In this document: piece after piece, positions 4,279-38,295 of the stretch
How the letters are laid out: every line of letters begins with the position of its first letter
How positions within the stretch are numbered: the first letter of the stretch is position 1
DNA from: Anaerolineae bacterium
GTDB lineage: Bacteria > Chloroflexota > Anaerolineae > 4572-78 > J111
Assembly: GCA_020433805.1 (NCBI GenBank)
Contig: JAGRBZ010000007.1
Coordinates: forward strand, 249-64,248
Direction of reading: 5' to 3'
Length of the DNA stretch: 64,000 nt
Notes under the pieces: generated by a model
The model's database searches: none
Seen by the model: the letters and a program-made list of their open reading frames with translations, nothing else
Told to the model about the DNA's origin: nothing
Program-made: the position numbers and the translations under genes

Positions 4279-4494
4279 TATTTTGTCTCCTTAATATGCA
4301 ATAACTTTTTCTGTTGAGGTAGAACTGGGGGATGGTGTATGTCATTGCATAAAAGTGAGCAATTCCTTTCGTTTGGTGCCAGTGATTGACGGTGTAACGA
4401 GAGGGCTTGAGTTGTCAAGTAGATCTTTGTCAAGATAGCAAACCCTTAGAGGTGGGCAGGGTACCGAAATACCCTGCCCTAAGCTGAATAGCGA

Positions 4495-4562
4495 CAAAAC
4501 AAAAAACGGCCACCCTCGCCATGCAGGCAGGAGTGACCGTCTGGTTATCTTTGAGCTACCAT
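4495..4562 (-). ncRNA. Candidate small RNA inside the repeat (consensus-like promoter plus intrinsic terminator on the minus strand)
   Basis: Minus strand has TTGACA (4592-4597), a 16-nt spacer and TATCAT (4570-4575). A 14-bp hairpin follows (plus-strand arms 4507-4520 and 4526-4539, one mismatch), then TTTTTTGTTTTG (4495-4506). The same elements are conserved in copy B. No expression evidence. Confidence 0.3.
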
Positions 4563-4579
4563 AAAAGCTATGATAGAAT
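4551..4579 (+). promoter_or_regulatory. Candidate sigma70-type promoter with extended -10, driving a structured leader of about 175 nt upstream of the STAS-GHKL gene
   Basis: TTGAGC (4551-4556), 17-nt spacer, TGA-TAGAAT (4574-4579). The identical hexamers occur in repeat copy B (38095-38100 and 38118-38123). Hairpins lie downstream at about 4593-4613 and 4621-4656. Confidence 0.35.
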
Positions 4580-4760
4580 AGACACCAGCCTTGTCAACTG
4601 CTAAACCCAGTTGGCGGGGTTAGCCGCCGGTGAGTGTTCGTAGCACTCGCCGGTGGCGACGTGGGGTTTGCCCTATTCAACTCTGACTATATGGTACTCC
4701 TTGAATGGAGATGGGTCAAGCCTTTTTCCTACATTGATTTAGACTCGCGAACCTGCTTTT

Positions 4761-5627
4761 ATGAACCCTCAAGTCATTTTTCTTCACCCTTTGAATAAAG
4801 AACTTACCGGTGTCGAAGACTTTTACCAGCAATTGATTCAATCGTCCGGAGCGGCAAGTTTTGCTCTTGATTTCGGTCGGGTAACATATATTCAACCTCA
4901 TTACCTTATGGCCCTAAATATTGGGGTTCGTTATCTATTTCACCACAGCAAAAGCCCGATAGGTTTAAGAAATCTGAATGACCAGGTATTGTCCTATCTA
5001 GAGCGCATGAATTTTTTTTCGATCAGCAGCCAATGGATTGAATTACAGGGGAAACTTCTTGAAGATACGTGGAACCGAAATCCCGACACAGATAACTTAC
5101 TGGAATTAACGACCATTGCCAGTGAGGATGACGTTGTACAAATTGTCGAAAGAACAAGACGTGTCTGCGCTCCCCTCAACCTCTCTAACCTGCCACAGAT
5201 ATTGCAAATCCTAAGCGAATTATGTAGCAATGCTCTATATCATAGTGGTGACAACAAAAGCTGCGCTTTAATCCAGCGATATTGGCAACAAAGAAAGCGC
5301 AAAAGACGCGTCGTATGTATTGCCATCGGAGACATGGGGTGTGGAATCCGCGGAAGTCTAGCCACGCGATTTGGCGAATTCGGCAATGAACAGAGCGATT
5401 ATTTATCAGCGGCGCTTGATGGTAAGACCTCACGAGAGACAGGACGAGGGGGCTTAGGCCTGTCTACCATCGAGACAACGGTTGATCAAGAAGGCGGATA
5501 TTTGTGGCTCAGGTCCGAAACTGCGGCGATTTTCAGCCGCGGAAAATATCAGCGCCGAATATCACCTTCACTTTCCGCTATTCCTGGCGCCCAAGTTGTC
5601 GTCGAGTTTAGCGCCCCAATGAAGTAA
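4761..5627 (+). CDS. STAS-like N-terminal domain fused to a GHKL (HATPase_c, RsbW/SpoIIAB-like) ATPase or kinase
   Basis: N-terminus reads FALDFGRVTYIQPHYLMALNIG...LRNLNDQVLSYLERMNFF (STAS-like). C-terminus has N-box ELCSNALYHS, G1 IGDMGCGIRGS and G2 GRGGLGLSTI. No obvious Shine-Dalgarno. Confidence 0.75.
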   Translation: MNPQVIFLHPLNKELTGVEDFYQQLIQSSGAASFALDFGRVTYIQPHYLMALNIGVRYLFHHSKSPIGLRNLNDQVLSYLERMNFFSISSQWIELQGKLLEDTWNRNPDTDNLLELTTIASEDDVVQIVERTRRVCAPLNLSNLPQILQILSELCSNALYHSGDNKSCALIQRYWQQRKRKRRVVCIAIGDMGCGIRGSLATRFGEFGNEQSDYLSAALDGKTSRETGRGGLGLSTIETTVDQEGGYLWLRSETAAIFSRGKYQRRISPSLSAIPGAQVVVEFSAPMK

Positions 5628-5661
5628 TTTGCTCTCCGATACAAAAATTTAGAAAGGCGAT

Positions 5662-5690
5662 TTGACAAATCCACTTTGATTGAGTAAATT
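5662..5690 (+). promoter_or_regulatory. Candidate internal promoter upstream of gene 2 of the cluster
   Basis: TTGACA (5662-5667), 17-nt spacer, TAAATT (5685-5690), inside the 130-nt AT-rich spacer between genes 1 and 2. Confidence 0.3.
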
Positions 5691-5757
5691 GTAGTTACGA
5701 TTTCACTAATTTTAAGTGAATTGACATATAGACACAGTGAATATTCAGGGAGAAAAA

Positions 5758-6348
5758 ATGATAGGATATAACATTAGTCAATTGCAAAATGAGATCGGTC
5801 TTACAAGTGGGCTATTCATTATGCGTTCCAAGGGGGAAAAGGCCTATCCTATTTTAGAAATGCAACTGCAGAGTATCCCTGAAAACGAAGCCCTGGTGGT
5901 GTGCTTTCCCGATGATCAATTAATGGATGTTTCTTTTGCCGATGAAACCATCATCCGGTTGGGCGAAGAAATCGCTGCCAACAAATTCGATCAACGACGT
6001 TTGCTACTGAAGGGATTAACGCCAGACAGCATTGTAAATATTGATCGAGCCATTCGCGGCCAGAAACTCAAACTAGCATTTATCCATATCACTTCCACGG
6101 GGAAGTGGGAGATTATCGGGCATCTTGAACCCAGCCTGCAAGAAGTGCTGGAAATGCTGGCCAACCGCGAGCGAATAACTGCTCCCGAATTGGTTCAAGC
6201 GTTAGATTTGGCTCTCAACACCGCTAATAATCGCCTCAAGAGACTTTTTAACCAGGGCCTCATTCAACGAGAATATGAGGTGTCGGACAAAGGGCTTCTG
6301 TACTATTACCGTTTTCCAATTCCTGTTTCAGATCGAGTTGACCTATGA
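5758..6348 (+). CDS. STAS-like (DUF4325-type) domain plus C-terminal winged helix-turn-helix protein
   Basis: LVVCFPDDQLMDVSFADETIIRLGEEI... has the pattern I recall for DUF4325 STAS-like domains. C-terminal ERITAPELVQALDLALNTANNRLKRLFNQGLIQREY looks like a MarR/wHTH. Start set at ATG 5758 after GGGAGAAAAA. Confidence 0.7.
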   Translation: MIGYNISQLQNEIGLTSGLFIMRSKGEKAYPILEMQLQSIPENEALVVCFPDDQLMDVSFADETIIRLGEEIAANKFDQRRLLLKGLTPDSIVNIDRAIRGQKLKLAFIHITSTGKWEIIGHLEPSLQEVLEMLANRERITAPELVQALDLALNTANNRLKRLFNQGLIQREYEVSDKGLLYYYRFPIPVSDRVDL

Positions 6349-7496
6349 CCAAAGATGCCGATACCCTCTTCAAATATCTTGTCGCTGGACTAATTGAAGC
6401 TGCTGAAACAGATTTTCGATATCCCTATCCGCCGCTCTGGCAGCAAGCTCTGAACATGCTGACTGCCTTCCAGATACGGCATCGGACACCTATACCCAAT
6501 ACACTTACCGGGACCTTGGCATTGTTAGAAGAGCCGATAGGCGAGTGGTGGCCTGGTGAGCTGCCTGAGGCCGTTACCGCTGAATTGGATCAGGATTTTA
6601 CTTTGCTTTTTGGGGGCCAGCCCGATGACTGGGCTTATGAGTTTTTAGAGTCAGAGGGTGTAGCTGGTATGGCAACACTAGCCCAATTTCAGGATGAGAT
6701 TACGCAAACAGGAATGAAGAGACTGCGTGATCTCTACCGGTCCAATGCTGACACTCTGGGTTACGTTTATGTTGTAACCCGTCGATTTATCGTCGAAAAT
6801 CCTGTTACAACCCTGGCAAACATTCAACAGACATTAGGCAATTTACCTCTAATTCGCCTCAAACAAGTGGCCGATTTTTATGAGGCTGAAGACGAATTTC
6901 TGAATGAAGCCTTACATCAAGGCCAGTTCTGGCGGTGTCCCCATTGTCAATCAATTCTGAATTGGGTCGATGGCACTCCCCGGTGTGAGCGTCACAGTGT
7001 GTGTGGCCGTCTTACAAGCGGCTATCGTGCCTGTAAGTTGTTAGCGCCAACAGGTAACTTACTACGATTAAAGCCGAGTATGGTGCGACGGGTGTGTGTC
7101 CCGGGTTTACCAGAAGTTGAGCTGTACGATTGGGCCAAAAATTTACAAACAGCGAATTCCGGACTGGTGAGTGTTTTCCTCTGGCCAGGGGTGGACCGGT
7201 ATGATCTCCAACTTTGTTTTGCCGACAACACCTCCTGGGCGATTGATGTGAAAGATTACGCCGATCCCATCAACCTGGGCCGGCGAGTCAGTAGCCAGTC
7301 GTTCTATAACCTAGGACAACTGCGCTGGGATCAAGGATATTACGTATTTCCTCAGTATCGCGTTGATTGGAATAAAAACTATGTTGAGCTGTTTAACCGG
7401 GCTGCCGAATTATCTATCCAAGTCAAGGGAGTCAGTGAAGTGGATTTCAAGAACCTGGTTATTCGCAAACTTGCTCAATTAACCGAGGACGCCTGA
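6345..7496 (+). CDS. Zn-ribbon plus PD-(D/E)xK restriction-endonuclease-fold protein (pPIWI-RE-associated REase-like)
   Basis: FWRCPHCQS...TPRCERHSVCGR (four-Cys ribbon). GVDRYDL...WAIDVKDY gives a D...D-x-K nuclease core. ATGA start/stop overlap with the upstream gene. Confidence 0.7.
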   Translation: MTKDADTLFKYLVAGLIEAAETDFRYPYPPLWQQALNMLTAFQIRHRTPIPNTLTGTLALLEEPIGEWWPGELPEAVTAELDQDFTLLFGGQPDDWAYEFLESEGVAGMATLAQFQDEITQTGMKRLRDLYRSNADTLGYVYVVTRRFIVENPVTTLANIQQTLGNLPLIRLKQVADFYEAEDEFLNEALHQGQFWRCPHCQSILNWVDGTPRCERHSVCGRLTSGYRACKLLAPTGNLLRLKPSMVRRVCVPGLPEVELYDWAKNLQTANSGLVSVFLWPGVDRYDLQLCFADNTSWAIDVKDYADPINLGRRVSSQSFYNLGQLRWDQGYYVFPQYRVDWNKNYVELFNRAAELSIQVKGVSEVDFKNLVIRKLAQLTEDA

Positions 7497-7499
7497 CCT

Positions 7500-10400
7500 A
7501 TGTTTGACCAACAATGGTATGACTCTCTGAAACGAAAAATTAGTGCTGCCGATATTGATGCTGAAATCGATAATCCCCGCCTGCTGCTGGAGGTTGAACT
7601 CGCATTTCGGTTACTGGAAATAATCGGCTTGACCGATGAACCGGCTGACGTTATCTGGTCGCTATTGAGCACCTTACCTGTGCCTCACCAGTCACTCACC
7701 AACCTGGACAATAACCAAAAACGGGCGCTGGCCAACGCTCGGGTCTTGCTCCATTTTGGACGCTTCGCCTGGCGCGATGCGCTCTACTGGTATAGCAAGC
7801 TACCCGCTCAATGGCGCGTTTACCAGGTTGACGCAGCTCAACCACTCAGCAAACCGGCACAACGCGAACCTAACGGCCCAGCCTATGTGACCAATCGAAT
7901 AGAAATTTACGACAACCTGTTGCATAAAAAACTCAGTTACAATAAACATTCATATGTCTTGGCAGGACCCGGGCGCATCACCTTCCGCACAACCCGCCAA
8001 CGGCCCCGAACAATCACCGTTGATCTGGATGCTGAAATGGTTTCCGCTGCGACAGCCGGGGATACCATCCCTCAAATTAACGGTGAGGAACGACCCCGCC
8101 AACCAATCATTGTGGATTGGGCCGGACTAAGAAACACGGCTGATATGCTGGATCAAAGAGCCGAGGAACGAAAGCCAGATCAAAACTCTGCTAAATGGAG
8201 CTGGCTGCTTGACCAGGTTATCCGGTTGCGATTTGTCGAAAAAGATGGTGGTTTGAGCCAGCTAAATGGCCATCCGCTCAAAATCGAGGGGATGCTGCAT
8301 CTGGCGGGTATGGTTGGCGCCGGTAAATCCACCTTAATGAAGCTGTTGGCCGCGCATGGAGTCCTTTCCGGCAACTGGCGCACCACTCTGGTGGTCGGCG
8401 ATACCATTACCGCCATCAATTTAGCCGATGAATTCAATCATCTTCTCTCTGACGGCAACTCACCGGTTGCGGTGCCCCTCTTGGGTCGCACTACCCGGCA
8501 TCACCATTTGCAGCGTCTTTACCAATCGAACAGCTTCCGCCCTGACCATTGGGGCTTACGCTGGTTGGATACTCGCTGCGCCATTCAGGGTTCTGCCGTT
8601 GAAAATGATCTAAAAGATGGGCCATTACAGCCCGGCGACGAACCATGTGAACGGTTGCAAGCCGGCCCACCTGATAAACCAGGCTCACTGCTACATTGTC
8701 CGCTCTTTGCCTTATGCCCTTCACGCCAACTTTACCACGATATTCCTGAGGCGATGATCTGGATTACAACGCCTGGGGCAATGGCAACATCCCATTTACC
8801 GGTAGCAACTGACCGGCGTCAGATGCTTTTAGGAGAGATGATTTACCATGAGGCAGATCTTGTAATTTTTGACGAGGTTGATACGGTTCAGCAATGGTTT
8901 GACAACGTCTATGCCTCCGACCAGTGGCTACTCGACGGGGGCCAGGGGCTGCTTGACGTGATGGATGTCAAAACCATCGAGGGTCTCAATCGCGGCTATC
9001 AAATCTCTCGACAGGGGCAGCGCTGGATTACGGCCGAACGGAGCGCCCGGCAGGTCGCCGAACAAGTATGTAGTATGCTGCGCGACCAGGCCGTGTTACG
9101 GGAGTGGCTTGGCGACCGCTACTTCACCGCGCACCGTTTATTTTTTGATTTAGCCTATCGTTTGCAGGTGAAGAGATCGGATGCTGATCAGGAAAAGATT
9201 AATCGGGTAGCTCTGGATTATTTTGACCAATTTCGCCGTGGATCTATTCTCCATCCGGGCGATAGCTATAACAAGGAACCGCTATCTCGACTTCTGGCCA
9301 TTGCCGACCAGGTCTTGGCCCGTGGCGGCAGTCTGGTTGATCGGGAGCGGGTTTTAGCTTTATGCAAGCAATGGTTAGAAGAATATGTACCTGATTCTAA
9401 GGCCATTGCCGGCCAACTGGCGCTTGAAAAAGCAGCCTGGCTTGAGAAGTGGCAGCATCGATCAGCGCGTCGAACCAGAAAACGGCCACCCCCTATGCCT
9501 GATGACTTGGAGACGTTGGCCGTCAGGCTTGAACTGGCGATTTCGGTCGCTATCCTTGAGGAAATGGTGCGAATCACCTTTGATGGTTGGCAACATGCAC
9601 CCTTGTTTATCACCAGTCAGATTGCCGATGATTATCGCTTGAGTCGCATTCCGCGTGACCTGGCCGGTGTCTTGCCCACCTCACCCACCGGTAGTCTCTT
9701 CGGATTTCAATACCTGGAAGAAGCTGGAGCCAGCCCGGATACAGCGGATGGTGAACAAATTCCGCTGAAAGTTCGCAGATTTTCTACGTTTCAATATCGC
9801 AACATCGGCCGCTGGTACGTTGAACACTTCCATGAATTACTCAGTGACCTTGGTTATCCCGGCCCTAATGTGTTGGCCATGTCCGGCACATCCTGGCTTC
9901 CTGACTCGGCAACATGGCATTTTTCGGTTGAACCCGCCGCTGTCCTGGAACCCACAGCGCACAGCCAGCAGGCCATCGAGACCAGCAAATTCTTCTTCAG
10001 GCCGGCTCGAGACAACGAGGGTAAACCCATCTTTGTGTCAGGCAGCGGGCGTTTGAGACAACAACTGGCTTTATTGGGCAAACAGTTGGCCGGCTATCCA
10101 GCCCCAAAGCAAGCTTTTTTGCTGCAAGAGTTGAAACGCCTCACCAATTTAGCCGAGCAGCAGCCGGAAGTGTGGGGCGACCGGGTTCGCCTACTCCTGT
10201 TCGTAAACTCATATGAGCAGGTACAGCCGGTGATGCAAGCCATCTTGAGCCAGCAGCCAGAGTGGAACCAGTTAACCTATGGACTGGTACGCAGTGCCGT
10301 CCCAACCCAGTCGAATGAATGGCAGTGGGCCAGGCTGGATGGTCAGACATTTATTAAGCATGATATAGAGCAATTCGGCCAGACTCAGGGTAACATTCTG

Positions 10401-11000
10401 GTTGCGCCGCTGCAGGCCATTGGTCGTGGTTACAATATTCTCAATGAAAACAATGTTGCTGCCTTTGGAACCGTATTATTTTTGACCCGACCAATGGCGC
10501 CTCCCTTTGATATGCAGGCTCGAGCCCAATGGCTAAACTGGTGTGTCCTGAACAAATGCGGCAGATCTGACGATGAACTTTGGCAGGGAAAAGTAGGCTT
10601 TCACGAAAAAGCTGAAGTCTTGCGTGACTGGGCGCATGATGAGTGGGATAGCTATGATGCCGCCCGCCGATATCAGGATTTGGATGATAAGCGCAAAAAC
10701 GATCTAGCCGCCTCGATGGCCGGTCTTATTATTCAAGCTTGTGGCCGGTTGTTACGGGGAGGTGTTCCGTTTCGGGCGTATTTCGTTGACGCGGCCTGGG
10801 CACCCCATACGGCCACAGGCAATAGGTCTGACACACTTGAAACCAGTCTACTCTTGAGGATGATTTACCTACTAAACTATTATTGTCAAAAGCCAGTCGG
10901 ACAAGCTTTATACGCACCCTTGGCCAGGTCTTTAAACCAAATAGAAGGGCTGGCCAAGCTTGAAACCATTAAAGATGAACCACTTTTAGTAATGGAGTAA
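7500..11000 (+). CDS. Large SF2 (DinG/XPD-like) helicase, pPIWI-RE-associated type
   Basis: Walker A AGMVGAGKST (nt 8304-8333). Walker B VIFDEVD (nt 8862-8882). Motif VI-like QACGRLLRGG lies near the C-terminus. Four Cys (aa 360, 383, 400, 406) lie between motifs I and II. Starts 4 nt after the previous stop. Confidence 0.8.
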   Translation: MFDQQWYDSLKRKISAADIDAEIDNPRLLLEVELAFRLLEIIGLTDEPADVIWSLLSTLPVPHQSLTNLDNNQKRALANARVLLHFGRFAWRDALYWYSKLPAQWRVYQVDAAQPLSKPAQREPNGPAYVTNRIEIYDNLLHKKLSYNKHSYVLAGPGRITFRTTRQRPRTITVDLDAEMVSAATAGDTIPQINGEERPRQPIIVDWAGLRNTADMLDQRAEERKPDQNSAKWSWLLDQVIRLRFVEKDGGLSQLNGHPLKIEGMLHLAGMVGAGKSTLMKLLAAHGVLSGNWRTTLVVGDTITAINLADEFNHLLSDGNSPVAVPLLGRTTRHHHLQRLYQSNSFRPDHWGLRWLDTRCAIQGSAVENDLKDGPLQPGDEPCERLQAGPPDKPGSLLHCPLFALCPSRQLYHDIPEAMIWITTPGAMATSHLPVATDRRQMLLGEMIYHEADLVIFDEVDTVQQWFDNVYASDQWLLDGGQGLLDVMDVKTIEGLNRGYQISRQGQRWITAERSARQVAEQVCSMLRDQAVLREWLGDRYFTAHRLFFDLAYRLQVKRSDADQEKINRVALDYFDQFRRGSILHPGDSYNKEPLSRLLAIADQVLARGGSLVDRERVLALCKQWLEEYVPDSKAIAGQLALEKAAWLEKWQHRSARRTRKRPPPMPDDLETLAVRLELAISVAILEEMVRITFDGWQHAPLFITSQIADDYRLSRIPRDLAGVLPTSPTGSLFGFQYLEEAGASPDTADGEQIPLKVRRFSTFQYRNIGRWYVEHFHELLSDLGYPGPNVLAMSGTSWLPDSATWHFSVEPAAVLEPTAHSQQAIETSKFFFRPARDNEGKPIFVSGSGRLRQQLALLGKQLAGYPAPKQAFLLQELKRLTNLAEQQPEVWGDRVRLLLFVNSYEQVQPVMQAILSQQPEWNQLTYGLVRSAVPTQSNEWQWARLDGQTFIKHDIEQFGQTQGNILVAPLQAIGRGYNILNENNVAAFGTVLFLTRPMAPPFDMQARAQWLNWCVLNKCGRSDDELWQGKVGFHEKAEVLRDWAHDEWDSYDAARRYQDLDDKRKNDLAASMAGLIIQACGRLLRGGVPFRAYFVDAAWAPHTATGNRSDTLETSLLLRMIYLLNYYCQKPVGQALYAPLARSLNQIEGLAKLETIKDEPLLVME

Positions 11001-11006
11001 GATAGC

Positions 11007-13613
11007 ATGAATAAAACAGAGTCGCCGCATCACATTCAGGAATTCCGATTCCGCCTAAATCTGGAAGCATTGGCCAATGAACAGATTGCTTATCTGCGCT
11101 TTCCGTGGGAGAGAGCAATCAATGAATTTACTGACTTCATTAAACAGAAATTGGGCAGAGAGTTAGTTTTCAAAGAGCTGCCGCCATTTCAACCGCTCAA
11201 TGCAGCACTGGTCGCCTTATCAACGACATTGGTTCACGGATTTGAAGAGTATAAATTTGATGAGCAAGAAATCAGATATCTGGTGCTGCCGGCCGACGCG
11301 CCACGACCTCAACTAAGCCAGCTCATAACCGTCGTCCAATTATGGATCGCAAATTGGATTGACAATAAATTCAAGAATGAGATAACTTTGCCCGAAGTGC
11401 AGCAGGCCCGCCTGGAACTGCTAGAGAAGCTCGACCATCCCGAATATGAATGGGAAGAGGCAACGGTTGACTCTCTCTGGCCCCACAGCCCCTTTATTTA
11501 TCAGGCCATTCCCAGCCTATTGGCCAAGTATCTGGTCAAACAGAAGCTGACAATTTTCGACCTCCATCCAGAATGGCGCTTGAGTAAAGGAACGGGAAAG
11601 GGGCATTTATCTCTGGTCAGCCAGCCGCTCCCTTCGGAAGCGGGTAATGACAGATTTGCTTATGTTATTGAATTCATAGTTCAAACCGTGCCGGGCGATG
11701 CCGAGCCTTATGTGGACCTTCATGTTCATTGTCGCCGCTATATGAGCCGTCCGGTTGAGTGGCTGAATCGCAATCGCAAGTCAACAGTTATGGTTGGGCT
11801 TAAGGCACCGCTCATTGATGGTTGGCCTTTCGACACAACCCTTATCCCCTTACAGGTAGACAGACGCGGTAAAAAATTCTTTTGGCGCGATCAAACCCGT
11901 CACCTGCTTGAACAGGTCAATATCCGGGCGTTAATTGAGCCTGATAAATTGGCTGCTAATCCATCAGAACACTGGTTTGCCAATGACCGGGATAAATACT
12001 TCTGGATATACGCCCAGGGTATGCAGCCCGACCATGAATTAGGAACCGGCTTCAGCCCCGGCGAAATGTATGAGGTATTTCAACAGGTAGCCCAATTGAC
12101 AGACTCTATCCTCACGCCAATTGCACCACTTGAACGAGACATGGAAACCTTCGGACGCAGACGCACCGCGGCAGAACTGACGGTTTGGGAACTGATGGAC
12201 GAAGGCAACCGGCAGGTTCGAATATTCGGCCAGTCGCGAAAAACTGAAACGCTTGATGACGCAGCCAAGCAGCAGTTAAAAATCGAGTCCGGGCGGAGAG
12301 CCGTTGATGATAAACCTCTCTATTTGCTGCTGCTGTATCGCGCTGAAAATAGCCGCCTCGAATTACGGAAGCATGCGCAAATGTGTTTGCCTGCACCTGA
12401 TCTAGATACTCATATCATCGAATTACAGCTTCAGGATGAGTTGACAGCTCCTTTTCCGGAGGATGCTTCTACCATAGAGTTCCAGAGGCGTCGGCGTCTC
12501 TGGAAGAAGTTCTTGCAGGAGATAGAATTTCCTAATAACGCCAAAATAATGGCCTTAATTGAAGTCCCGCGTGACAACTTGTCAGATGACGATGAAAAAG
12601 TAAAAACCGTAATCCGTGAGGTGTGTATGCATCTTGATATCGGTTCGCAGTTATTTGTGCAGCCCAAGGCTGAATTCAAGTCAGGTGATACAAGCCGCGC
12701 CAAAAACGCCGTGACAGATTTGCTGGTGCGACAAACCGGCACAATTTTCGGCGACATTCGCGATATCTACCGGGCAGCTGGCCTGCCCGGCGAGGTGGCT
12801 GACCACCTGACGGTCATCGGTCTATACCGCCGCCGGACAAGCGGATCGAAAGCCATTGATTTTCCATTGGCGGTACGGGTTCTCCCCATTGGCAAGGTCG
12901 AGATGTGCTGGCCCGGCCAGATATGGTTGGCCTATCATCAGGCTACCCTGAGTTTGGGCCAGTTCTTCAAAAGCAATCGAGGGAAAAAAAATCACCGGCA
13001 AATTCTCAATCTGAATGGCGATAAAATCTCATCGTTCATTGAGCAGGTTTGCCTGATGACCAACAGCCCAACCCTGGTTCTGGTTGAAGCCCACGATTTT
13101 CGCGGTGTGTGGCCGACACTGCAAAATCCGAAGTTGCTGCGTAATGAGCTTCGCCTGACCACCGGGGATATTTTGACGCCCGCCTCAGTGCCAGACCTAC
13201 GGCTTATTCGCCTACGCACCAGTGAGAATCACGAAACACCTCAATACGTGCGGGTGTTTCCAGGCAATGACGCCGGTCAATATGAGGCTGGACGCAGCGC
13301 GGAAAGTCTACACTTGGCCCGCACGTCTGGCCCTTTCCCGATGTTTCACAGCATTGGCCAGATGCCCCAAACCACCACCTATCAAAAAGCGACTGACCCC
13401 AAGACCCAGAGTGGTGGGGATCGCTCATACAAACACCAACGTATTATGGAAATCATCCCCATTTTTATGCAACCCGGCGACCAGGAACAGGCTTGGGCGC
13501 GGCTGGTAGACTACTTGCGCTATACCCCGGCATGGCACGGCGGCGACCCCACGCTCCCTTTACCCAATCACCTCGCGGTTAACGCTCTGCAGGATGTGCT
13601 GTGTTTACTATAA
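11007..13613 (+). CDS. pPIWI-RE-like prokaryotic Argonaute/PIWI-family protein (RNaseH-fold C-terminal domain)
   Basis: Position is downstream of the REase plus DinG-like helicase. C-terminal strings PTLVLVEAHDFRGVWPTLQN, LIRLRTSENHETPQYVRV, KHQRIMEIIPIF and DPTLPLPNHLA match my memory of the pPIWI_RE RNaseH domain. Not verified by any search. Confidence 0.6.
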   Translation: MNKTESPHHIQEFRFRLNLEALANEQIAYLRFPWERAINEFTDFIKQKLGRELVFKELPPFQPLNAALVALSTTLVHGFEEYKFDEQEIRYLVLPADAPRPQLSQLITVVQLWIANWIDNKFKNEITLPEVQQARLELLEKLDHPEYEWEEATVDSLWPHSPFIYQAIPSLLAKYLVKQKLTIFDLHPEWRLSKGTGKGHLSLVSQPLPSEAGNDRFAYVIEFIVQTVPGDAEPYVDLHVHCRRYMSRPVEWLNRNRKSTVMVGLKAPLIDGWPFDTTLIPLQVDRRGKKFFWRDQTRHLLEQVNIRALIEPDKLAANPSEHWFANDRDKYFWIYAQGMQPDHELGTGFSPGEMYEVFQQVAQLTDSILTPIAPLERDMETFGRRRTAAELTVWELMDEGNRQVRIFGQSRKTETLDDAAKQQLKIESGRRAVDDKPLYLLLLYRAENSRLELRKHAQMCLPAPDLDTHIIELQLQDELTAPFPEDASTIEFQRRRRLWKKFLQEIEFPNNAKIMALIEVPRDNLSDDDEKVKTVIREVCMHLDIGSQLFVQPKAEFKSGDTSRAKNAVTDLLVRQTGTIFGDIRDIYRAAGLPGEVADHLTVIGLYRRRTSGSKAIDFPLAVRVLPIGKVEMCWPGQIWLAYHQATLSLGQFFKSNRGKKNHRQILNLNGDKISSFIEQVCLMTNSPTLVLVEAHDFRGVWPTLQNPKLLRNELRLTTGDILTPASVPDLRLIRLRTSENHETPQYVRVFPGNDAGQYEAGRSAESLHLARTSGPFPMFHSIGQMPQTTTYQKATDPKTQSGGDRSYKHQRIMEIIPIFMQPGDQEQAWARLVDYLRYTPAWHGGDPTLPLPNHLAVNALQDVLCLL

Positions 13614-23542: not shown

Positions 23543-23752
23543 CAAATCAAAAACCAGGAAAAGGGCCAAGAATCCTGATGTGCATTTCAACTAACTCCGT
23601 GGTGTAACAATGTGTCAGCAAGCGTCGATGCATTCGATTTGTATGATGGGGTGTACAGCGGTGTTACTCAACGGATTGATGGTGATTCTTATCTAAAATT
23701 TTCGATGTCTTTAAATATTTGGAAAACTATGAAGAAATTATAGTATTTTCCT

Positions 23753-25374: not shown

Positions 25375-25544
25375 TGTGCCCAGTGACAGATAGCTACCAT
25401 AGCCTAAGTTACCATGAAAAGAGTCAAGAGAGTATCTTAGGTTAAGATAATTTTATGATTAAGATTTAGACTGGTTTCACATAGAAATAATGTTCTGATA
25501 CAATAGTTATTATTGTCCCAATAAGGTTGCAAGAGGAACCAAGT

Positions 25545-28500: not shown

Positions 28501-31500
28501 TTCACATTCATTCTCAGGCCGATTCAGTAGATAGTTGGGGTGTAACGGGGATACACGCCGAAGCTCTAATTGCAGAGGAGAAAAATCTACCATACTTGAG
28601 TGAATACGACAATGATGAATTGATATCAACAACCCAAAACATAGGTTTGCGCTCCGTAGCCAGAGTCTTAAAAAAGAGTGGGGAAATCAATAATAAGACT
28701 CATCAACACTTAACCTCACAAGCTCGTCGACGTACCCGCTCAGAAAACAGATTGGTTTTACCAAAAGAAAGTGGTCTAGTAGTAGCTATGCCTGCTCTAA
28801 TTACCATTGTAAATGCTGGTGCGCTTGAGGAATTCTGTGATTATTTCGGTGAGATCCACCTCTCCCAATCTGCCTGGCAAAGAATTTTGGCCCAAATAGC
28901 AGAATTTGAGCGTACAGAAGAAATGATTCGTGAATTGCGCCACTTGCAAAGCATGTTGGGAGAAGCTGTACAGGATGGTTTTGTACAAGTTGGGGCCGCG
29001 TCGCCTGACCAAAGATTACTTTTACAGGCGGAACAAGACAAAAAAGATGACAATACACCTACCGAAGATGCTAATTCTTTAAGAGACATCAAGCAATTTT
29101 TGTCCGAATATCTTGATGACTTGCTGTGGATTGCCCATTCTCGTCAACTTTCAATTTGGGCAGATGATCGCTGGATGAGCAAATTTTATCCCAATGAGCG
29201 TAGACCAATATTTATCTTCGGCACAGACTCATTTCTAGAATGGGCACGAAGAAAGTCTTCAGATGATGATGAATATTTTGACAGATACAGTCGCATAATT
29301 GAGTGGGGATACCTAGGTCTACCATTACACCCAAACTACATTCTGTGGTTATTGAATCAAGACTTGCAACCGGAAGCCAAGATTTTTGCAGCTGCACTAT
29401 CCCTCTATCGTCAATATGTGATAGATATTTGGAATGCTTTCCGAATCACAGGAGAAATATCAGCCGAGTTCGGAACCAAACTTTTTGATCTATATAATCA
29501 GGCAATTATCTCAACGCTATTTCAATGTTTTGAGCAGGGAATTCTTTTAAAGACTTGCGCAGATATCTTTCGAGCTTTGGATTTGACTCGAAATACCTCA
29601 TTGGCGGAAGGCAATGAACCTCAATTCTTGGCAAGTCTGATAATTAGGGGTGTTAATGATGATTGCCTTGCACAATTGGATGGTGTCGAAGAATATTTAA
29701 CAAATTGGGCTCAATTTGTGAATTTCAACCGTTGGCTCGATAAAGTATTGCAAACATCCGGGGTTACGACGGAAGTAATACAGGAGGCTTGGTATGAGTT
29801 GTTGCAATCGCCTATTGCGATGTATGACAGTGCTAAAAATGAACAGGATAGGTTGATTGCTACACTTTTTTCACAAAGATTATTTGATGCAGCTCCAGAT
29901 CATGCTAAAGATTATTTGGTCAACAGCACCCTTGAGCCAACAATGCGACAAGCTTTTGGGTTTGATGCTCAATATTCTATCATTTTTACCAGTTCTGACG
30001 GCACGATACGAGCCAAAATTCCAGCCGAAGAATGGTCAAAAGACATTAACCAAGCAATTACAGAATTTGTAACCACCGAGTCCTCAGATCCTATAACTGT
30101 AGGAACTGCCACTATACAGGCCAACTGGGTAGCTTACGGATCAATATTCCTGCGATATAAAGAGTTTCCCTCAGAACTGCACAATGATCAGCCTGACGCT
30201 AAATTCCTTGACGGAGACTCCATCAGCATTCTACCGTATGCTACTTCGGAAAATATGAAAGAACGTTTAGGCTTCTGGTTTCAGGGGCTACGAAAACTAA
30301 AAAAGATGGACGGTGACTATGACGAATGGTTAATGTTATGTAACGACATCGAGTCTGAATCATCGGCGGACGTTACAGAAGCCGGACATCGACTCCAGTG
30401 TATTTTGTTTGGTCAGTTGACAATAGCGAAAGATTACCTTACTGAAGCAACGCAAATAGGGTCTCAAGCCATCTTACATGTATTAGCTCACATAGAACCT
30501 CAAGTAGTTCGGCGATGGTTAGATCTGCCCCAGTTAGATTGGGAAACCTCGGATAGCCTGACAACTTGGGCCAAGACCGGAATAGATGAGTTGTTATCAA
30601 ATGCAAACGACACCGCAAGAATTGATTTGCTCATAAACAATTATTCGAGTTTTGGATACTCAATTTTTCCGGATGCTTTGGTTTGGCAAGAGGCTATTGA
30701 TCAATCACTAGAAGATTGCAGCCTAGCAGAGTTGCGACGTGCAATTGATGATTTAGCGATTTTGAGCGAAAAAAGCCGATCGATGCCACTAAAAGCGAAC
30801 GTCCTTTTATCACTACTTCGTTTGGAACAAATAATTGATGATGCTGAGCTTGAAGCCAGTATCTCTGAACGTATCCATAAACTAACAGCCTGTATCGCAC
30901 AACCTTGGAAATCTACTGATGAGCAGGATCGATCCTATCAAAAATTAGAACAGACGCTATGTGATTACCTTTACATGGCTTGGCTCAAACAAAATAGCTC
31001 TGATCAAGATGTATTGCGAGAAATTGCATATCTCGCCTATCTGGGCGCTGCGATTATCACAGATATGTTGGCTAGTTCCGGTTTGTTGCTACTTGAATAT
31101 ATTGATGATCTAATAAGGGAGTTAACTACAGTTGCTCAAAAACGTTGGACAAAGGAAGGCATTGTGGCCCGGCAACCACACGGTATATTTAAACCAAGGT
31201 GGGGTGTAAACCTAAATTACGCTCTTGCATATTTGCTTAGGGTTAACATCCTGAACCAGCTACATTTAGGCAAACTTGCTACTAACTCAACAACTCGTCA
31301 AACATTACTTGATGCTGGTTCACTCTACCGTCTCATTCAAGCATACATTCCTAATCTTAGCCCTAAAGAAGATTGGCTTGACTCCTTACTCGTGGCAGAC
31401 ATTGGGCAAGGGATAGCTTACATCATATCAACAGCACTTGGGGACGAATTGGAGATTTGGCCAGAGGAAGAGCAAGTAAAATTCAACATCTGTAGTACGC

Positions 31501-32090
31501 CGGAAACTGGTGTTGCTATGATCGCTGAAAGGTTAAGAAATCTTCCTGCAGCCAATGAAAATGAGATTTCACATATCGTTGGTATGTCATTCGTCTCAGC
31601 GCCAACTTGGAGTGAAGAAGCCTATCAGCTTGTTGCTGTTTTATTGTATCCAGATATTCTTAATCAAATCATGCGTTTTCCAGTTGCCTATGGAGAACTT
31701 GTGGCACAGCTTATCTATTTGCTAGCAACCGATGAAACACTTTCTACCGAGCTTGCAAATCAGGCAAAAAACCTGGTATTTGGCTTGCCACCACAACTGG
31801 ATAATAGAAGCGATCTTATAGTAACACAGGCGAGGGTATTGTCAGGGGTAATCAACTTTACCCCATACACAAAAAACATAGAAACTTGGCTAAAAGATTT
31901 GACAACTGATACGGTGATAGAGACTTCTATGGTGAGACGTGGCCTAATGCCGTTTGTAAAGTCATGGCCTCATTATGAATATGAGATTAAACAAATTGTT
32001 GGAAAAGCCCTTGCTGAAATTGCAACTATCCCACGATTTTCAAATCTATGGGAACTTAAACGAATTAGCCGCGAGTTTACTCCACAATAG
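25545..32090 (+). CDS. Giant (about 2181 aa) Mrr-like PD-(D/E)xK nuclease + TPR array + PIN-like domain + long helical C-terminal region; no P-loop detected
   Basis: N-terminus HGVDVYG...YVGVQCKRY...YIIVTT (D...Q-x-K core). TPR-like helices, for example PEAYLELSQAYLDAGQRDESFQWAMKA. VVLDYTAIL...SEQ...SEYDNDEL at aa 915-1060. No GK[ST] appears anywhere. Start set at ATG 25545 after AAGAGGA. AT-rich. Confidence 0.75.
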   Translation: MPTFATSPLPVPESWKEFEKIARDIYARLWQDPNAELNGRDGQSQHGVDVYGQPWDLQGRYVGVQCKRYRETKLTKTKIIKEIKKAEQFTPKLFEYIIVTTEVKDGALQEIVREINVERLANQKFPVRLVFWEDLCTNYLAHPDYRDLLREIARKHYSDWVNLFSEIKALESSSIFQISVEREHNLGSLTLQERHLQERLEVLRAEANNGYKEAIQPQVSALVSDMENIAQDANLDSELQGQVYRLAANVVLPNRPGGDTKQCRNYLLKARTFSSSGDGLVKCQIIEALLAYLTRGLDVALAMVDDIEGKEADRFRFSMYLENNEWAACTTLLQTYKETDLSNTKDWLRLLVLYYAGVGNRVKLEEISEQLLASISHADHYMMAGFAWVRLAYRQYQHFCEKHDVCPALHIELALDELIDFEARQQALDMFARAFEIYREKNCILTAQQALLTAIQLAMDESDSKRLDQLLEQLQALDPQHPLVILKRDEIRLSKLAKPEAVTEQLEKLLIDSETDLALGLALDVSQEDETITKQVAYLLAHHQTRFEHDDIASVQFLYKVFHLHMQADAQPEAKTWLDSLSPPERYGHLQPLLQFIFYIKHDPPLAPQYLEQALEKYPEHPEILAVATKYYWGQGDYQRQIEYARKLFAILPIASVAIEILNALIAAQNYDVFLQGVSEFESLSIPEEAIKSKCAYAHLRLGQPLNALEHLEWLHNQNKARLDELINLARILQYLGQWGDAFAVLGDCVQLYPEEPEAYLELSQAYLDAGQRDESFQWAMKARSRFRYNANVAVHLVQVSHLTGFEHRSDIQKVFQEFSLGGRFESTGYMRPASLEEIRSALKSHRDFSESLETSYRQGKISSMMLCYLQPGFPNALFRFHIISTQFKLPRYVAAGDQPFDAAWLKKNNPKEVVLDYTAILTLWSLYRDDWLDTLRHNFRQVWVPDKLLQAMYSEQRLMRQYGQPSQYKIQRAIRDVIEQKPGKFHIHSQADSVDSWGVTGIHAEALIAEEKNLPYLSEYDNDELISTTQNIGLRSVARVLKKSGEINNKTHQHLTSQARRRTRSENRLVLPKESGLVVAMPALITIVNAGALEEFCDYFGEIHLSQSAWQRILAQIAEFERTEEMIRELRHLQSMLGEAVQDGFVQVGAASPDQRLLLQAEQDKKDDNTPTEDANSLRDIKQFLSEYLDDLLWIAHSRQLSIWADDRWMSKFYPNERRPIFIFGTDSFLEWARRKSSDDDEYFDRYSRIIEWGYLGLPLHPNYILWLLNQDLQPEAKIFAAALSLYRQYVIDIWNAFRITGEISAEFGTKLFDLYNQAIISTLFQCFEQGILLKTCADIFRALDLTRNTSLAEGNEPQFLASLIIRGVNDDCLAQLDGVEEYLTNWAQFVNFNRWLDKVLQTSGVTTEVIQEAWYELLQSPIAMYDSAKNEQDRLIATLFSQRLFDAAPDHAKDYLVNSTLEPTMRQAFGFDAQYSIIFTSSDGTIRAKIPAEEWSKDINQAITEFVTTESSDPITVGTATIQANWVAYGSIFLRYKEFPSELHNDQPDAKFLDGDSISILPYATSENMKERLGFWFQGLRKLKKMDGDYDEWLMLCNDIESESSADVTEAGHRLQCILFGQLTIAKDYLTEATQIGSQAILHVLAHIEPQVVRRWLDLPQLDWETSDSLTTWAKTGIDELLSNANDTARIDLLINNYSSFGYSIFPDALVWQEAIDQSLEDCSLAELRRAIDDLAILSEKSRSMPLKANVLLSLLRLEQIIDDAELEASISERIHKLTACIAQPWKSTDEQDRSYQKLEQTLCDYLYMAWLKQNSSDQDVLREIAYLAYLGAAIITDMLASSGLLLLEYIDDLIRELTTVAQKRWTKEGIVARQPHGIFKPRWGVNLNYALAYLLRVNILNQLHLGKLATNSTTRQTLLDAGSLYRLIQAYIPNLSPKEDWLDSLLVADIGQGIAYIISTALGDELEIWPEEEQVKFNICSTPETGVAMIAERLRNLPAANENEISHIVGMSFVSAPTWSEEAYQLVAVLLYPDILNQIMRFPVAYGELVAQLIYLLATDETLSTELANQAKNLVFGLPPQLDNRSDLIVTQARVLSGVINFTPYTKNIETWLKDLTTDTVIETSMVRRGLMPFVKSWPHYEYEIKQIVGKALAEIATIPRFSNLWELKRISREFTPQ

Positions 32091-33364: not shown

Positions 33365-33366
33365 CC

Positions 33367-34192: not shown

Positions 34193-34414
34193 ATGAATAG
34201 CCTACCCCCTGAATTTGAGGCATTGAACCCCCAGATCGAGGGCATGCCGGCTGAAGTAGTTCAAGCCTTCCGCTACAGCCTAGCCCGGTTGCTGGTTGAA
34301 GCAGGCCGATTAAGTGATGTCTCTAGCGGTGGCAATACGGCCAGTTCTGGACTGCTGGCGGTTCTGAATTTGAATTGCCGAACCCCCACTTGCCGGCAGC
34401 ACAGGCCAAAATGA
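34193..34414 (+). CDS. Small hypothetical protein, possibly frameshifted (alternative C-terminus runs to 34449)
   Basis: AAGGAA lies upstream of ATG 34193. A protein-like continuation ...YGQFWTAGGSEFELPNPHLPAAQAKMMEDHLRWLMGL sits in another frame and ends at TAG 34447-34449. Confidence 0.3.
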   Translation: MNSLPPEFEALNPQIEGMPAEVVQAFRYSLARLLVEAGRLSDVSSGGNTASSGLLAVLNLNCRTPTCRQHRPK

Positions 34415-35423: not shown

Positions 35424-35526
35424 CATTAACCCCAAAGCAAAAGCTACTCTACGGCTATATATTCCACTTAATGCCGGTACTTAAAGTGGCCGGGGCAGAG
35501 ATAACTATGACGACTGGAAGTTTTCG

Positions 35527-35991
35527 ATGTCTCCTGTGATGTTGCCTGTGCCGCATATGCGGCAGCGTCATCCTGGTGAATGTCTTGCTGCTTGTGCAGC
35601 CATGGTACTCACCTACCTGGGTTTCTCCACGAGCTACGAACGACTGTTGAAATTGCTGCGGGTGGAGCAAGGCATCGGTACACCGGCCTCCAATATTCGC
35701 GAACTTGGCCAGTTGGGCGTAACCGTCATCTATAAACAGGGCACTTTGGCCGAGCTCCACGATCATCTAACGAATGATCGGCCATGTATTGCCTTTGTGC
35801 AAAGTGGCGAACTTCCCCACTGGAATACCGACACCGATCACGCCATTGTGGTGGTTGGCTTGGATGAGACGTATATTTATCTAAACGATCCCGAATTTCC
35901 TGATGCCCCGCTCCAGGTTCCGCATGGTGACTTTGACCTGGCCTGGCTTGAGTGGGATGAATGTTACGCCACATTCATAAGCTCTACGTGA
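35527..35991 (+). CDS. Stand-alone peptidase C39-like (papain-fold cysteine peptidase) domain protein
   Basis: QRHPGECLAACAAMVLTYLG (Gln...Cys catalytic region) and DHAIVVVGLDETYIYLNDP (His...Asp region), in the order typical of C39 bacteriocin-processing domains. Confidence 0.7.
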   Translation: MSPVMLPVPHMRQRHPGECLAACAAMVLTYLGFSTSYERLLKLLRVEQGIGTPASNIRELGQLGVTVIYKQGTLAELHDHLTNDRPCIAFVQSGELPHWNTDTDHAIVVVGLDETYIYLNDPEFPDAPLQVPHGDFDLAWLEWDECYATFISST

Positions 35992-36294
35992 TTGCTGTAT
36001 TTTTTCTCATTGTCGGCTAGACAACTCAAAACAAAAAAACTCGTCTGATATACTTTCAACAAAGCGGCTTGATAAGGTCGTTTTTCACCTTGGAGCCGGC
36101 CATGTCTGGCTATAGAAAGTTGGGTAAAATTTAAGGTATCCCGAAAAAAGATATATCAGAGTCCGGGCGAAGGCGTTCAGAATCGACATCATAGTCGATT
36201 CATAGTAATATGCCGGACACTCGCTAAAAATGTATTTCGGTGTCCTGCCTATAAGCGTTAGGCACCATCTACGGATTCCAGGACGTCTTGAATT

Positions 36295-36861
36295 ATGGAT
36301 GACAAGCTACTTAAAAGATATCTTGAATACGCAAACACCGAAGAGTCCTTTGCAGTTCTCTTTGTGAAGAAGCATCTCGCTCAAGCAAAAGGGCATTGGG
36401 TAGATATTGTCGATTGCCGACGCTATGAGATGTCCTCGGATAATTTACATTTCCGATTCGTTGTAGGCCGCCTGTATAAGAGAAAAATAAAACCGCAGTA
36501 TCCCTCAAAATCCGCATACACCATTGATGGCAAATTTGACGAACGTGGATATTACTTGATGACACGAGCCATAACGTGGGAAACCGCACACAAGGACATA
36601 GAGCAGCAACAGTCAAAGAACGTGGCGGTGTCGAAATTCAAGATAACAGGCGTGAGCTACGATAAGAATCGAGGCAACAAGAACTATTTTCGGGACGACG
36701 CACCACCCGAGATAAAGGCTCTTGCAAGGGATCTTAACGACCGTACAGACCCACTGTGGGACAAGGCCATGCAATATGTTAACAAGCCGGAGTTTGTTTA
36801 TGAAATAAAACAGGTTTCGATGGTAAAGCGGTGTTCATACCAATATTTGGCCTGCTGTTGA
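36295..36861 (+). CDS. Orphan hypothetical protein; its 3' end runs into the truncated IS4 copy
   Basis: AT-rich ORF with no motif recognised. The last roughly 18 codons are read from IS-derived sequence (homology to 24084 onward starts near 36806), so the native C-terminus is probably lost. Confidence 0.4.
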   Translation: MDDKLLKRYLEYANTEESFAVLFVKKHLAQAKGHWVDIVDCRRYEMSSDNLHFRFVVGRLYKRKIKPQYPSKSAYTIDGKFDERGYYLMTRAITWETAHKDIEQQQSKNVAVSKFKITGVSYDKNRGNKNYFRDDAPPEIKALARDLNDRTDPLWDKAMQYVNKPEFVYEIKQVSMVKRCSYQYLACC

Positions 36862-37795
36862 GTAGAACAGTTCGTCAAAAAAAAGATATGTCGTTGCTCA
36901 ACCTGATGTCAGGCAATGAAAATGTTCAAGCCTATAACCGGCTGTTTATGGATGAAAGGAGACTGGAACAACAAGGCTGTTTGGGCTGAGGCCAGGGCCA
37001 GTTCCTGCACAATTTCCGTCAGGGAGAGCCATTTACCCGCAAAGTAAGCCAGATGGCTTTGGCTGGTACGACAGACAAACTGCCAGTTGGTCTGCTCAGT
37101 GAGCCAGGTTAGCACTTGTGTGCCATCAAATTCAGCATCAGCCACAAAGACCACTTGGCTGGCGGCTGGTAATAAAGTGGCCACATATTGTAAAAGTTCA
37201 AGTTGTTCTTGTTGCGGTGTGTGTCCTTTCTTGCCTTTCAAACAACGCCAAGCAAGCGGAATGGCTCGTTTTTTGTAATAGACACTTACCAGCAAACACA
37301 GACAACGACCGCCCAGTTTGGTACTGTCCAGCATTATCACAAGTGGCTGGTTGGGAGCGATGCGCTGCAACATCTGCCTGGCCAAGGGCTCATAGACCGG
37401 CTTGACCTGCAACCACCGGCTTTTGATAAAGCGTTCGAAACGGCTGATCAGGCTGGGCGTCTTGTAGTCGTACAGTACCTTTTGGGCTATCTTGGTCAAC
37501 CGTCCATCCCGGCTGCGCAACAGACCGGTGACCATCATGGCCAGGCTCAAGCGATGTTCCGGCAGCAGCTTTGGTAATTGGTTGCTCAGTTCGCTGGCTA
37601 TGAAGCGAAACAGGCGGGCCGCATCACTCTTATTTTGCCTTTTTTTGTTTGTCGTTTTCGACGGCGCTGCTGTTTGTTACATCGGGTCTGGTATCGTTCT
37701 CGGATCGTTTGCATCTGTTAGCTCCTTCATATTTTTGAGGGTACTTTGCTAAACTTTATCCCTTTTTGTCAATTCCAGACCCCTACGTTATTAAA
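36806..37795 (-). mobile_element. Truncated second copy of the IS4-family element (lacks about 330 bp, including one terminal IR and the transposase C-terminus)
   Basis: Aligns to 24084-25072 of copy 1, roughly 85-90 percent identity by eye. Transposase ORF 36909-37550 is continuous across the copy-1 frameshift site. Terminal ...ccctacgttattaa corresponds to ...ccccctacgttactaag. Confidence 0.8.
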
Positions 37796-37992
37796 ATCAT
37801 ACATATGTCATTTGCTTTTAACATTGGTATTCTTTGTGATTTCAACTTCAACTCACATTTAGCCTGAGCCTGTAATGGAATCATAAAAGTTTGTTGCATT
37901 TTTTATGCTCCTTTGCAATAAAATTATTGGGATGAAAGCGGACAATTGAATAATTACATTGCGAAGGAGCCGACAACTTCTTGGCAACTTTT

Positions 37993-38295
37993 GAGGGCAG
38001 GTGGGGCTTTGACGCACCCCACCCTGAGCTGAATAGCGACAAAACAAAAACGGCCACCCTCGCCATGCAGGCAGGAGTGACCGTCTGGTTATCTTTGAGC
38101 TACTATAGAAGCTATGATAGAATAGACACCAGCCCTGTCAACTGCTAAACCCAGTTGGCGGGGTTAGCCGCCGGTGAGTGTTCGTAGCACTTGCCGGTGG
38201 CGAATTGGGATTTGTCCTATTCAACTCTTACTATATGGTACCCCTTGATTGGAGATGGGTCAAGCCTTTTTTATATTGTTTCAGTCTCGTGAATT
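37993..38295. repeat. Direct repeat copy B (partner of 4452-4752)
   Basis: Same order of elements as copy A: an edge hairpin with different sequence, A-run, long hairpin, TTGAGC-17-TAGAAT, two leader hairpins, ...ggagatgggtcaagcctttttt. Confidence 0.9.

Follow-up and report, generated by a model that had tools for sequence, protein, structure and literature searches.

Two direct copies of a non-coding module bracket an accessory block

The DNA analyzed here, hereafter the window, is a 64,000-nucleotide stretch from an Anaerolineae bacterium of the phylum Chloroflexota (contig JAGRBZ010000007.1, positions 249 to 64,248). Reading from the left, it carries genes for a DeaD helicase and a hydrolase, then three tRNA genes and a tyrosine integrase gene, followed by the first of two direct copies of a segment that we call module E. 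The second copy lies at the far end of a 33.5-kb block that contains a complete pPIWI-RE system, and it precedes radical-SAM, glyoxalase and NorB-like genes (Table 1). We propose that the block probably arrived with a second element that also carried E. Here we refer to the left and right copies as E_L and E_R.

Comparison of the window with itself revealed one family of direct repeats with two members, 4497-4727 and 38041-38271, which are 94% identical without gaps. A gapped alignment extended the similarity to 4471-4798 and 38016-38344 (86% identity over 332 columns, E-value 8e-96). The repeat core, 4482-4745 and 38027-38290, has 246 matches, 15 mismatches and 3 gaps (93.2% identity) and includes exact blocks of 58, 56, 26, 22 and 19 nt. 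Weaker and older homology carries the repeat to 4448-4797 and 37993-38344. In the right-edge segment (4746-4797) the two copies are 57% identical, and in the hairpin segment of the left edge (4448-4481) they are 54% identical, with the stem kept through compensatory changes. The original prediction, which was made from the DNA letters alone, had placed direct repeats at 4452-4752 and 37993-38295 and counted about a dozen differences over roughly 255 nt. Both statements were essentially right, and the self-comparison confirmed that the repeat has two copies. Its further statements, that the integrase at 3190-4278 lies outside the left copy, that the content between the copies is accessory and that the repeat is not derived from a tRNA, agree with the gene positions, with the genes found in the block and with ARAGORN and Rfam, which detected only the three tRNAs at 2753-3040.

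The arrangement is real and not an artifact of assembly, because each junction recurs in independent assemblies of this organism. Contig L004, from an independent metagenome assembly, covers the integrase gene, E_L and the HATPase gene that opens the block. Two contigs from independent assemblies, L106 and L109, cover an insertion sequence (IS) remnant, a truncated open reading frame (ORF37, see below) and the left part of E_R to 38100, while L001 begins at 38137, L003 at 38162, and both reach the radical-SAM gene. The short-read contigs break within the exact blocks of E, as a two-copy repeat predicts.

E is an unannotated, structured non-coding module of ~280-350 nt. We consider it non-coding because the small open reading frames within it are not conserved between copies, as is seen directly in the sequence. 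Neither ARAGORN nor Rfam found a tRNA or tmRNA in either copy, and E resembles the tRNA-Phe region no more than chance would produce. The reading of the repeats as attL and attR of a tRNA-targeting island was rejected on the origin of the repeat, as neither copy shows tRNA or tmRNA derivation. With regard to a dispersed element of the miniature inverted-repeat transposable or repetitive extragenic palindromic kind, only two E copies occur in 64 kb, and the other copies with a visible flank adjoin an integrase of one family.

A related lineage carries one copy of E and lacks the block

We found the arrangement with a single E in L094, a 49-kb Joint Genome Institute (JGI) contig from a related Chloroflexota bacterium that is 80-92% identical in nucleotides to the window where the two can be aligned. 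In the orientation of the window, L094 carries the integrase gene, one E, the radical-SAM and glyoxalase genes, an intact NorB gene and then genes that match 53.7-59.7 kb of the window. The block is absent. Three contigs from three other samples (L095-L097) have the same junctions. Thus relatives hold an empty site with one repeat copy, the very allele that the original prediction had proposed to look for.

A five-way alignment placed the limits of this correspondence. The left flank of E_L (4279-4390) and the right flank of E_R (from 38290 onward) are orthologous to L094, and these outer flanks are 80-86% identical to it. In contrast, the right flank of E_L shows weak homology to 4797 only and is unrelated from there on, and the left flank of E_R is unrelated to L094. 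The repeats are long and similar enough for a Campbell-type crossover through RecA, and the DNA on their outer sides runs on without a break in the allele that lacks the block. The original prediction had named such a crossover of a circular element as one possible origin, with a segmental duplication as the other, and the crossover gains support from the outer flanks, orthologous to L094, and from the inner ones, which are not; the inner flank of E_R instead resembles another contig, L012 (see below).

The backbone to the right of E_R has further differences from L094. The NorB-like gene, intact in L094 (748 aa), is truncated in the window at ~41636, and the L094-like backbone continues only after ~12 kb of extra DNA (41636-53712, including an IS at 43046-44266). 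The junction between the end of the radical-SAM gene and the start of the glyoxalase gene (39994-40159) has a second, 78% identical copy 13.5 kb downstream (53548-53713).

Module E accompanies a narrow family of integrase genes

A 21-mer scan of JGI metagenomes yielded two further copies of E, on contigs L012 and L013, which are 86-91% identical to the window copies and stand in different contexts. E was not found among GTDB species representatives (searched with one 20-mer) or in IMG/VR (two 21-mers), was not matched in PLSDB plasmids or GenBank phages, and is absent from 80 DeaD-anchored loci of related Chloroflexota. The window integrase is itself rare, with only ~20 homologues in 5.8 billion proteins.

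In four independent contexts (E_L of the window, L094, L101 and L012), E lies directly upstream of a tyrosine integrase gene. Wherever a flank is visible, E stands ~100-300 nt upstream of the integrase-side gene and has variable cargo on its other side. This cargo includes pPIWI-RE, BREX BrxL, a two-component system, a hydrolase and the radical-SAM/NorB cluster. The contigs differ in how close their integrases are to that of the window. In L094-L097 the integrase is 78% identical and a single E is followed by the radical-SAM backbone; in L101 it is 59% identical, with E present and BrxL on the cargo side; in L104 it is 52% identical, and only the terminator and first hairpin (hairpin0) of E are found, after an unrelated gene. 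Contigs L100 and L105 (62% and 58%) have no E, and their integrase gene is followed by an intact tRNA-Phe. The phage-like contigs L098, L102 and L103 (45-50%) also have no E. In L012, the hairpin0 side of E is followed by a 62-codon open reading frame (orf62) and then by a distant integrase gene, inside which the contig ends; over the first 155 residues, the encoded protein has 24.5% identity to the integrase of the window. By its occurrence in these contigs, E is a module that belongs to a narrow family of integrative elements in Chloroflexota. Since it is family-wide, stands beside integrase genes and is not private to this locus, two different elements can be expected to share it.

E is 82-98% identical between elements whose adjoining integrases are only ~24-78% identical (as in window 4448-4745 versus L012 2815-3089). 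It is also a mosaic, in which different sub-segments group the copies differently. L012 and E_L share 98% identity in the left core, and the spacer of P2, a leftward promoter-like site, is 93% identical between E_L and E_R, 85% between L094 and L012, and 42-70% otherwise. Because sub-segments occur as different types across copies, we consider that E modules have repeatedly exchanged sequence. The right limit of homology varies as well, lying at ~4728 for L012, L013 and L101 and at 4797 between E_L and E_R. Selection and frequent exchange would both fit the conservation of E.

In L104 (192-306), the terminator hairpin and hairpin0 stand by themselves, directly after an unrelated G+C-rich gene and before the integrase gene. 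The left part of E can thus occur alone, perhaps as an insulator ahead of an integrase gene.

The inner flank of E_R probably derives from a second element

Immediately left of E_R lies ORF37, the 37-codon start of a small gene on the minus strand (37899-37786), preceded by a well-placed AAGGAG. It is cut by an IS remnant, the end of which, at 37783, supplies its stop codon. The left flank of E_R, including ORF37, is homologous to the orf62 side of L012 (66% identity over 151 nt), with a score of 46.8 bits where 200 shuffled sequences reached 24 at most. The intact integrase lies outside the repeats, and inside them there is only this 37-codon remnant of L012 type, next to E_R. From this homology to the integrase side of L012 we infer a second E-bearing element, and the right end of the block is, by the same comparison, its decayed integrase side. 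A donor unit with its own E would fit both the L012-type inner flank of E_R and the occurrence of E in other elements.

A single crossover within E as the probable origin of the locus

Our preferred explanation, which we consider probable, is that a second E-bearing element, carrying pPIWI-RE and other defense genes, joined the resident element through a single crossover in E. The resident element would have comprised the integrase gene at 3190-4278, E, the radical-SAM/NorB genes and the DNA beyond, joined to the chromosome at tRNA-Phe. The donor would have been a circular element of L012 type, with a distant integrase, a small open reading frame, its own copy of the module (E') and cargo starting with the HATPase and helix-turn-helix (HTH) genes and pPIWI-RE. 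A single crossover inside the highly similar core would place E_L after the resident integrase, then the donor cargo and the integrase side of the donor, and finally E_R with the resident cargo, which is exactly the order seen in the window. The integrase side of the donor would have been destroyed later by an IS insertion or a deletion, and further defense genes would have accumulated in the block. Recombination between E_L and E_R in reverse would delete the whole block and restore an arrangement like that of L094. The direction of the event, the circular donor and the role of RecA are proposals of this model.

The crossover was most probably homologous and of the RecA type, judging from the architecture of the repeat. 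Homologous recombination is favored because the duplication takes in the entire module and the similarity fades toward either edge; because the limits of homology differ among family members; because E is a mosaic of segment types, which indicates repeated exchange; and because the exact runs of 58 and 56 nt suffice for RecA. The minimal length for RecA pairing is established, and both runs exceed it.

Several observations weigh against this explanation. The relative with a single E belongs to a different lineage and is not a sister strain, so that it demonstrates presence and absence of the block and not the event itself. We found no donor in which E' stands beside a close HATPase homologue, the best homologues being ~50-55% identical. 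Among contigs of the same organism with the exact integrase or radical-SAM protein, there was no deletion allele, circular junction or hybrid. The integrase expected behind ORF37 is gone, leaving marginal similarity only at 36446-36514 (E-value ~0.02, no Pfam match). Informative sites compared with L094, L012, L013 and L101 do not place the crossover point, since the parents were ~93% alike in the core and E is a mosaic. Finally, a site-specific event catalyzed by an L012-type integrase would give an identical product.

Such a site-specific event is the first alternative, and we regard it as unlikely. The lost L012-type integrase would have used E as its attachment site, E' being attP and E_L and E_R being attL and attR, and excision would need the integrase that is now lost. 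Both L012 and the flank of E_R have a small open reading frame beside E in the position of an excisionase gene, with the integrase gene next in L012, which is the usual place of attP. Moreover, E is far better conserved than the adjoining integrases, like attachment sites in conserved RNA genes, and its core has a perfectly identical stretch. However, the resident integrase family also adjoins E and yet has its junctions in tRNA-Phe, ~1.3 kb off and on the other side of the gene, so a position beside E does not imply use of E. What is duplicated is the entire module with decaying edges, and not a short core with sharp arms, and the right limit of homology differs between copies (~4728 versus 4797). 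As the L012 contig ends inside its integrase gene, the attachment site of that element is not visible.

The two-copy state could also be ancestral, for example after tandem accretion at tRNA-Phe, in which case the two copies would have recombined in the L094 lineage and deleted the block. The comparisons made here are compatible with gain as well as with loss. That the block is not recent is indicated by its mosaic make-up, its decayed IS copies (84-88% identical) and its pseudogenes, and the copies of E differ by 7%. Nonetheless, the P2 spacer of L094 is 62-67% identical to the window copies, against 93% between them, so the E of L094, whose spacer type differs from both, is not a simple recombinant of window-like copies. 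Tandem accretion would also leave a fragment of tRNA-Phe between the modules, and there is none. Ancestry of the two-copy state therefore seems rather improbable to us. Whichever the direction of history, the direct copies of E remain substrates for deletion of the block.

We give little credence to a further reading, in which E would be a dedicated landing pad, either a recombination site or an RNA module working with the integrase family, that swaps cargo blocks, often defense genes, between co-resident elements. Such a pad would be loosely analogous to attI of integrons, with cargo of operon size. If it existed, the near-identity of E across very different integrases would reflect selection for pad compatibility. 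A literature search for RNA-guided tyrosine recombinases found nothing relevant.

Least convincing, and in our view very improbable, is a local duplication of the ~264-nt core, or of a copied promoter or small RNA (sRNA) cassette, later filled by accessory genes without any second element: the core, including the unconstrained P2 spacer, is indeed much more alike between E_L and E_R than to any other E, and the repeat edges are as diverged as unrelated family members, but this leaves the homology of the E_R left flank to the L012 integrase side unexplained, and the edges (hairpin0 and 4746-4797) are homologous and anciently diverged, which fits two family members.

Predicted signals within module E

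The promoter and RNA assignments in E were made from consensus and covariation, and the promoter activities are predicted ones (Table 1). A leftward promoter-like site, TTGACA-16-TATCAT, and a rightward one, TTGAGC-17-TAGAAT with a TG extension, overlap back to back. The TGATAGAATAG stretch of the rightward site is invariant in all six E copies. Downstream of the leftward site, the terminator hairpin (4540-4503) is followed by TTTTTTGTTTTG. Every pair of this hairpin can form on the minus strand, whereas the plus strand has mismatches, and L013 and L104 show compensatory changes. Together, this terminator and the leftward site (4597->4570) could produce an sRNA of ~65 nt.

On the plus strand, the two long hairpins at 4587-4657 have a fold z-score of -4.7, against -1.3 on the minus strand, and across copies they show U-G/C-G alternation and one change from A-U to G-C. 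Further right, all six copies retain the -35 box of P2 (TTGAC[CA]) and, at a spacing of exactly 17 nt, a TAnnAT hexamer, despite a spacer that is only 42-70% identical among copies. P2 and the rightward promoter-like site face each other at a distance of ~98 bp. Transcripts are predicted to start at ~4684 and ~4563 in the leftward direction and at ~4586 in the rightward one, and leftward transcripts to stop at ~4497. An 8-bp inverted repeat in E, CTGAATAG/CTATTCAG, has variants that are compatible with G-U pairing on the minus strand only, and it could close a leftward RNA of ~200 nt. No Rfam family reached its gathering threshold in E, the best sub-threshold match being RybB (22.4 bits versus 40). 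An invariant GGTAGCTCA in E (4552-4560, minus strand) equals nt 6-14 of tRNA-Phe, a chance-level match (BLAST E-value ~0.3).

Each copy of E thus sets a rightward promoter-like site before a gene cluster, namely the HATPase/HTH/pPIWI-RE genes from 4761 and the radical-SAM genes from 38701, and sets leftward promoter-like sites and a terminator before the integrase-side gene. E may be a regulatory switch or a recombination hotspot.

The resident element is linked to the 5' side of tRNA-Phe

Synteny with L014, the nearest GTDB genome (DeaD 82% identical in amino acids), stops exactly at the 5' end of tRNA-Phe, and L014 shares only the DeaD and hydrolase genes and the three tRNAs with the window. 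In the window, L100 (4692-5079) and L105, the integrase gene is followed by an intact tRNA-Phe. In L094-L097 and L104, in contrast, the integrase gene and the same promoter-like spacer lead into a partial tRNA-Phe (nt 1-44/53 only), after which the DNA is unrelated (L094 11089-11290). This suggests that a promoter, together with the 5' half of tRNA-Phe, is part of the resident element, which would lie upstream of the tRNA gene in an unusual orientation. By these junctions, the integrase at 3190-4278 is part of a larger element linked to tRNA-Phe and does not belong to the block, and the far end of that element would lie outside the window. E is not the attachment site of this integrase, since it lies ~1.3 kb from the tRNA-Phe junction and has nothing in common with it. 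As for marks of an attachment site, no exact match of at least 13 nt to the tRNA/integrase region occurs elsewhere in the window.

Contigs L098, L102 and L103 are phage- or plasmid-like, with genes for tail-fiber, ParB, actin-like segregation and AAA_25 proteins, and in L094 HTH_3 and AAA_25 genes follow the partial tRNA-Phe. A temperate phage or a phage-plasmid may thus have been the ancestor of the resident element.

The best profile matches of the window integrase are generic Xer-like models, all below their cut-offs. An integron was rejected on the integron-integrase model TIGR02249 (45.8 bits against a cut-off of 265). A cassette array was likewise rejected, the cargo consisting of multi-gene operons and of genes for proteins of 1000-2187 aa, and no further family of hairpin repeats, as attC sites would form, occurs in the window.

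Content of the bracketed block

The block is a mosaic, as its G+C content swings from 40% to 62%. Its AddB/AddA-like nuclease-helicase pair has 56-62% G+C, compared with 40-50% in its neighbors, a contrast that suggests separate acquisition; the AddA-like protein also matches models of GajB-type defense helicases. The two IS copies of the DDE_Tnp_1 type are 84-88% identical. The best homologues of the HATPase gene, the first in the block, are only 52-55% identical and none locates the donor, and no HATPase pseudogene follows E_R.

Table 1 Features of the locus, in coordinates of the 64,000-nt window.
Feature	Coordinates	Strand	Remarks
tRNA-Asp, tRNA-Gln, tRNA-Phe	2753-3040	-	ARAGORN, Rfam
tRNA-Phe, likely attachment site of the resident element	2966-3040	-	synteny with nearest genome ends here
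Tyrosine integrase of larger resident element	3190-4278	-	family linked to 5' side of tRNA-Phe
E_L, left copy of module E	4448-4797	.	core 4482-4745; older homology 4448-4481 and 4746-4797
Hairpin0	4455-4480 (E_L); 37998-38024 (E_R)	-	sequence varies; pairs changed on both sides at 5 of 11 stem positions
Predicted intrinsic-terminator hairpin and T-run, leftward	4497-4540	-	pairing and compensatory changes
Rightward promoter-like site, TTGAGC-17-TG-n-TAGAAT	4551-4579	+	aims at HATPase gene (E_L) and radical-SAM gene (E_R)
Leftward promoter-like site, TTGACA-16-TATCAT	4597->4570	-	consensus
Two long predicted hairpins	4587-4657	+	G-U pairs suit plus strand; fold z-score, covariation
P2, leftward promoter-like site, TTGACC-17-TACCAT	4691-4719	-	convergent with rightward promoter-like site
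HATPase and HTH genes	4761-6348		
Bracketed block	4798-37992	.	33.5 kb; mosaic composition
pPIWI-RE system, complete	6345-13613		three genes: PprRE, PprDinG, PprPIWI
AddAB-like pair	13641-20164		
LmuA-like/STAND protein	20426-23542		
IS, DDE_Tnp_1	~23700-25059		
Mrr-TPR-PIN protein	25527-32090		2187 aa
XerC-like recombinase	32351-33364		
Gene fragments			between XerC-like recombinase and IS remnant
Second IS copy, remnant	36807-37783		5'-truncated
ORF37, truncated start of small gene	37786-37899	-	homologous to L012 orf62; cut by IS end at 37783
E_R, right copy of module E	37993-38344	.	core 38027-38290
Radical-SAM/B12, glyoxalase and NorB-like genes	38701-41636	+	backbone common to L094, directly after its single E

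Discussion

The architecture described here is standard island biology, with integrative elements that are nested or in series and joined through a shared segment. It resembles the accretion of integrative and conjugative elements (ICEs) and cis-mobilizable elements (CIMEs) in Streptococcus thermophilus and other composite tRNA-linked islands, where two related modules likewise stand in series, a repeat marks outer and inner junctions, one integrase has decayed and units are lost via the repeats. In contrast to ICE/CIME accretion, the repeat here is a non-coding module of 264-350 nt, across the integrase gene from tRNA-Phe, and not an attachment core, and for this reason the join was probably homologous and not site-specific. 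Campbell-type cointegrates, whether formed by plasmids, prophages or IS, similarly leave the shared segment as direct repeats, and the reverse reaction deletes the insert. Here, however, what the two elements shared is no IS or gene but a conserved module with predicted promoter and RNA features, and the donor circle is itself a proposal.

The locus can also be compared with the defense hotspots of P2- and P4-like prophages and satellites, in which a backbone, here the integrase gene and E, borders a variable cargo slot. It differs from them in the host phylum, in its unrelated backbone, in having only one slot border (E) defined and in cargo that is not all defense. E also recalls the pR/pL region of coliphage 186 and the Pe/Pc region of phage P2, as a short non-coding stretch next to the integrase-side operon in which promoter-like sites, here ~98 bp apart, point toward each other, with overlapping antisense transcripts predicted. 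Unlike those switch regions, E has no repressor gene beside it, and it shares no sequence similarity with those phages.

Nothing in this locus overturns current ideas on the evolution of islands. The shared segment is unusual in not being an attachment core, and E itself is undescribed and has no Rfam family; together with the 5'-side linkage to tRNA-Phe, this module most deserves further study. For annotation, the limits of the island differ from those that the position of the integrase suggests. The integrase side that belonged to the block has decayed, so that homologous deletion is now the sole route by which the block can be lost. The natural single-copy allele shows how, in an uncultured Chloroflexota bacterium, a defense-rich block of 33.5 kb that includes a pPIWI-RE system sits as a removable unit within a larger element linked to tRNA-Phe.

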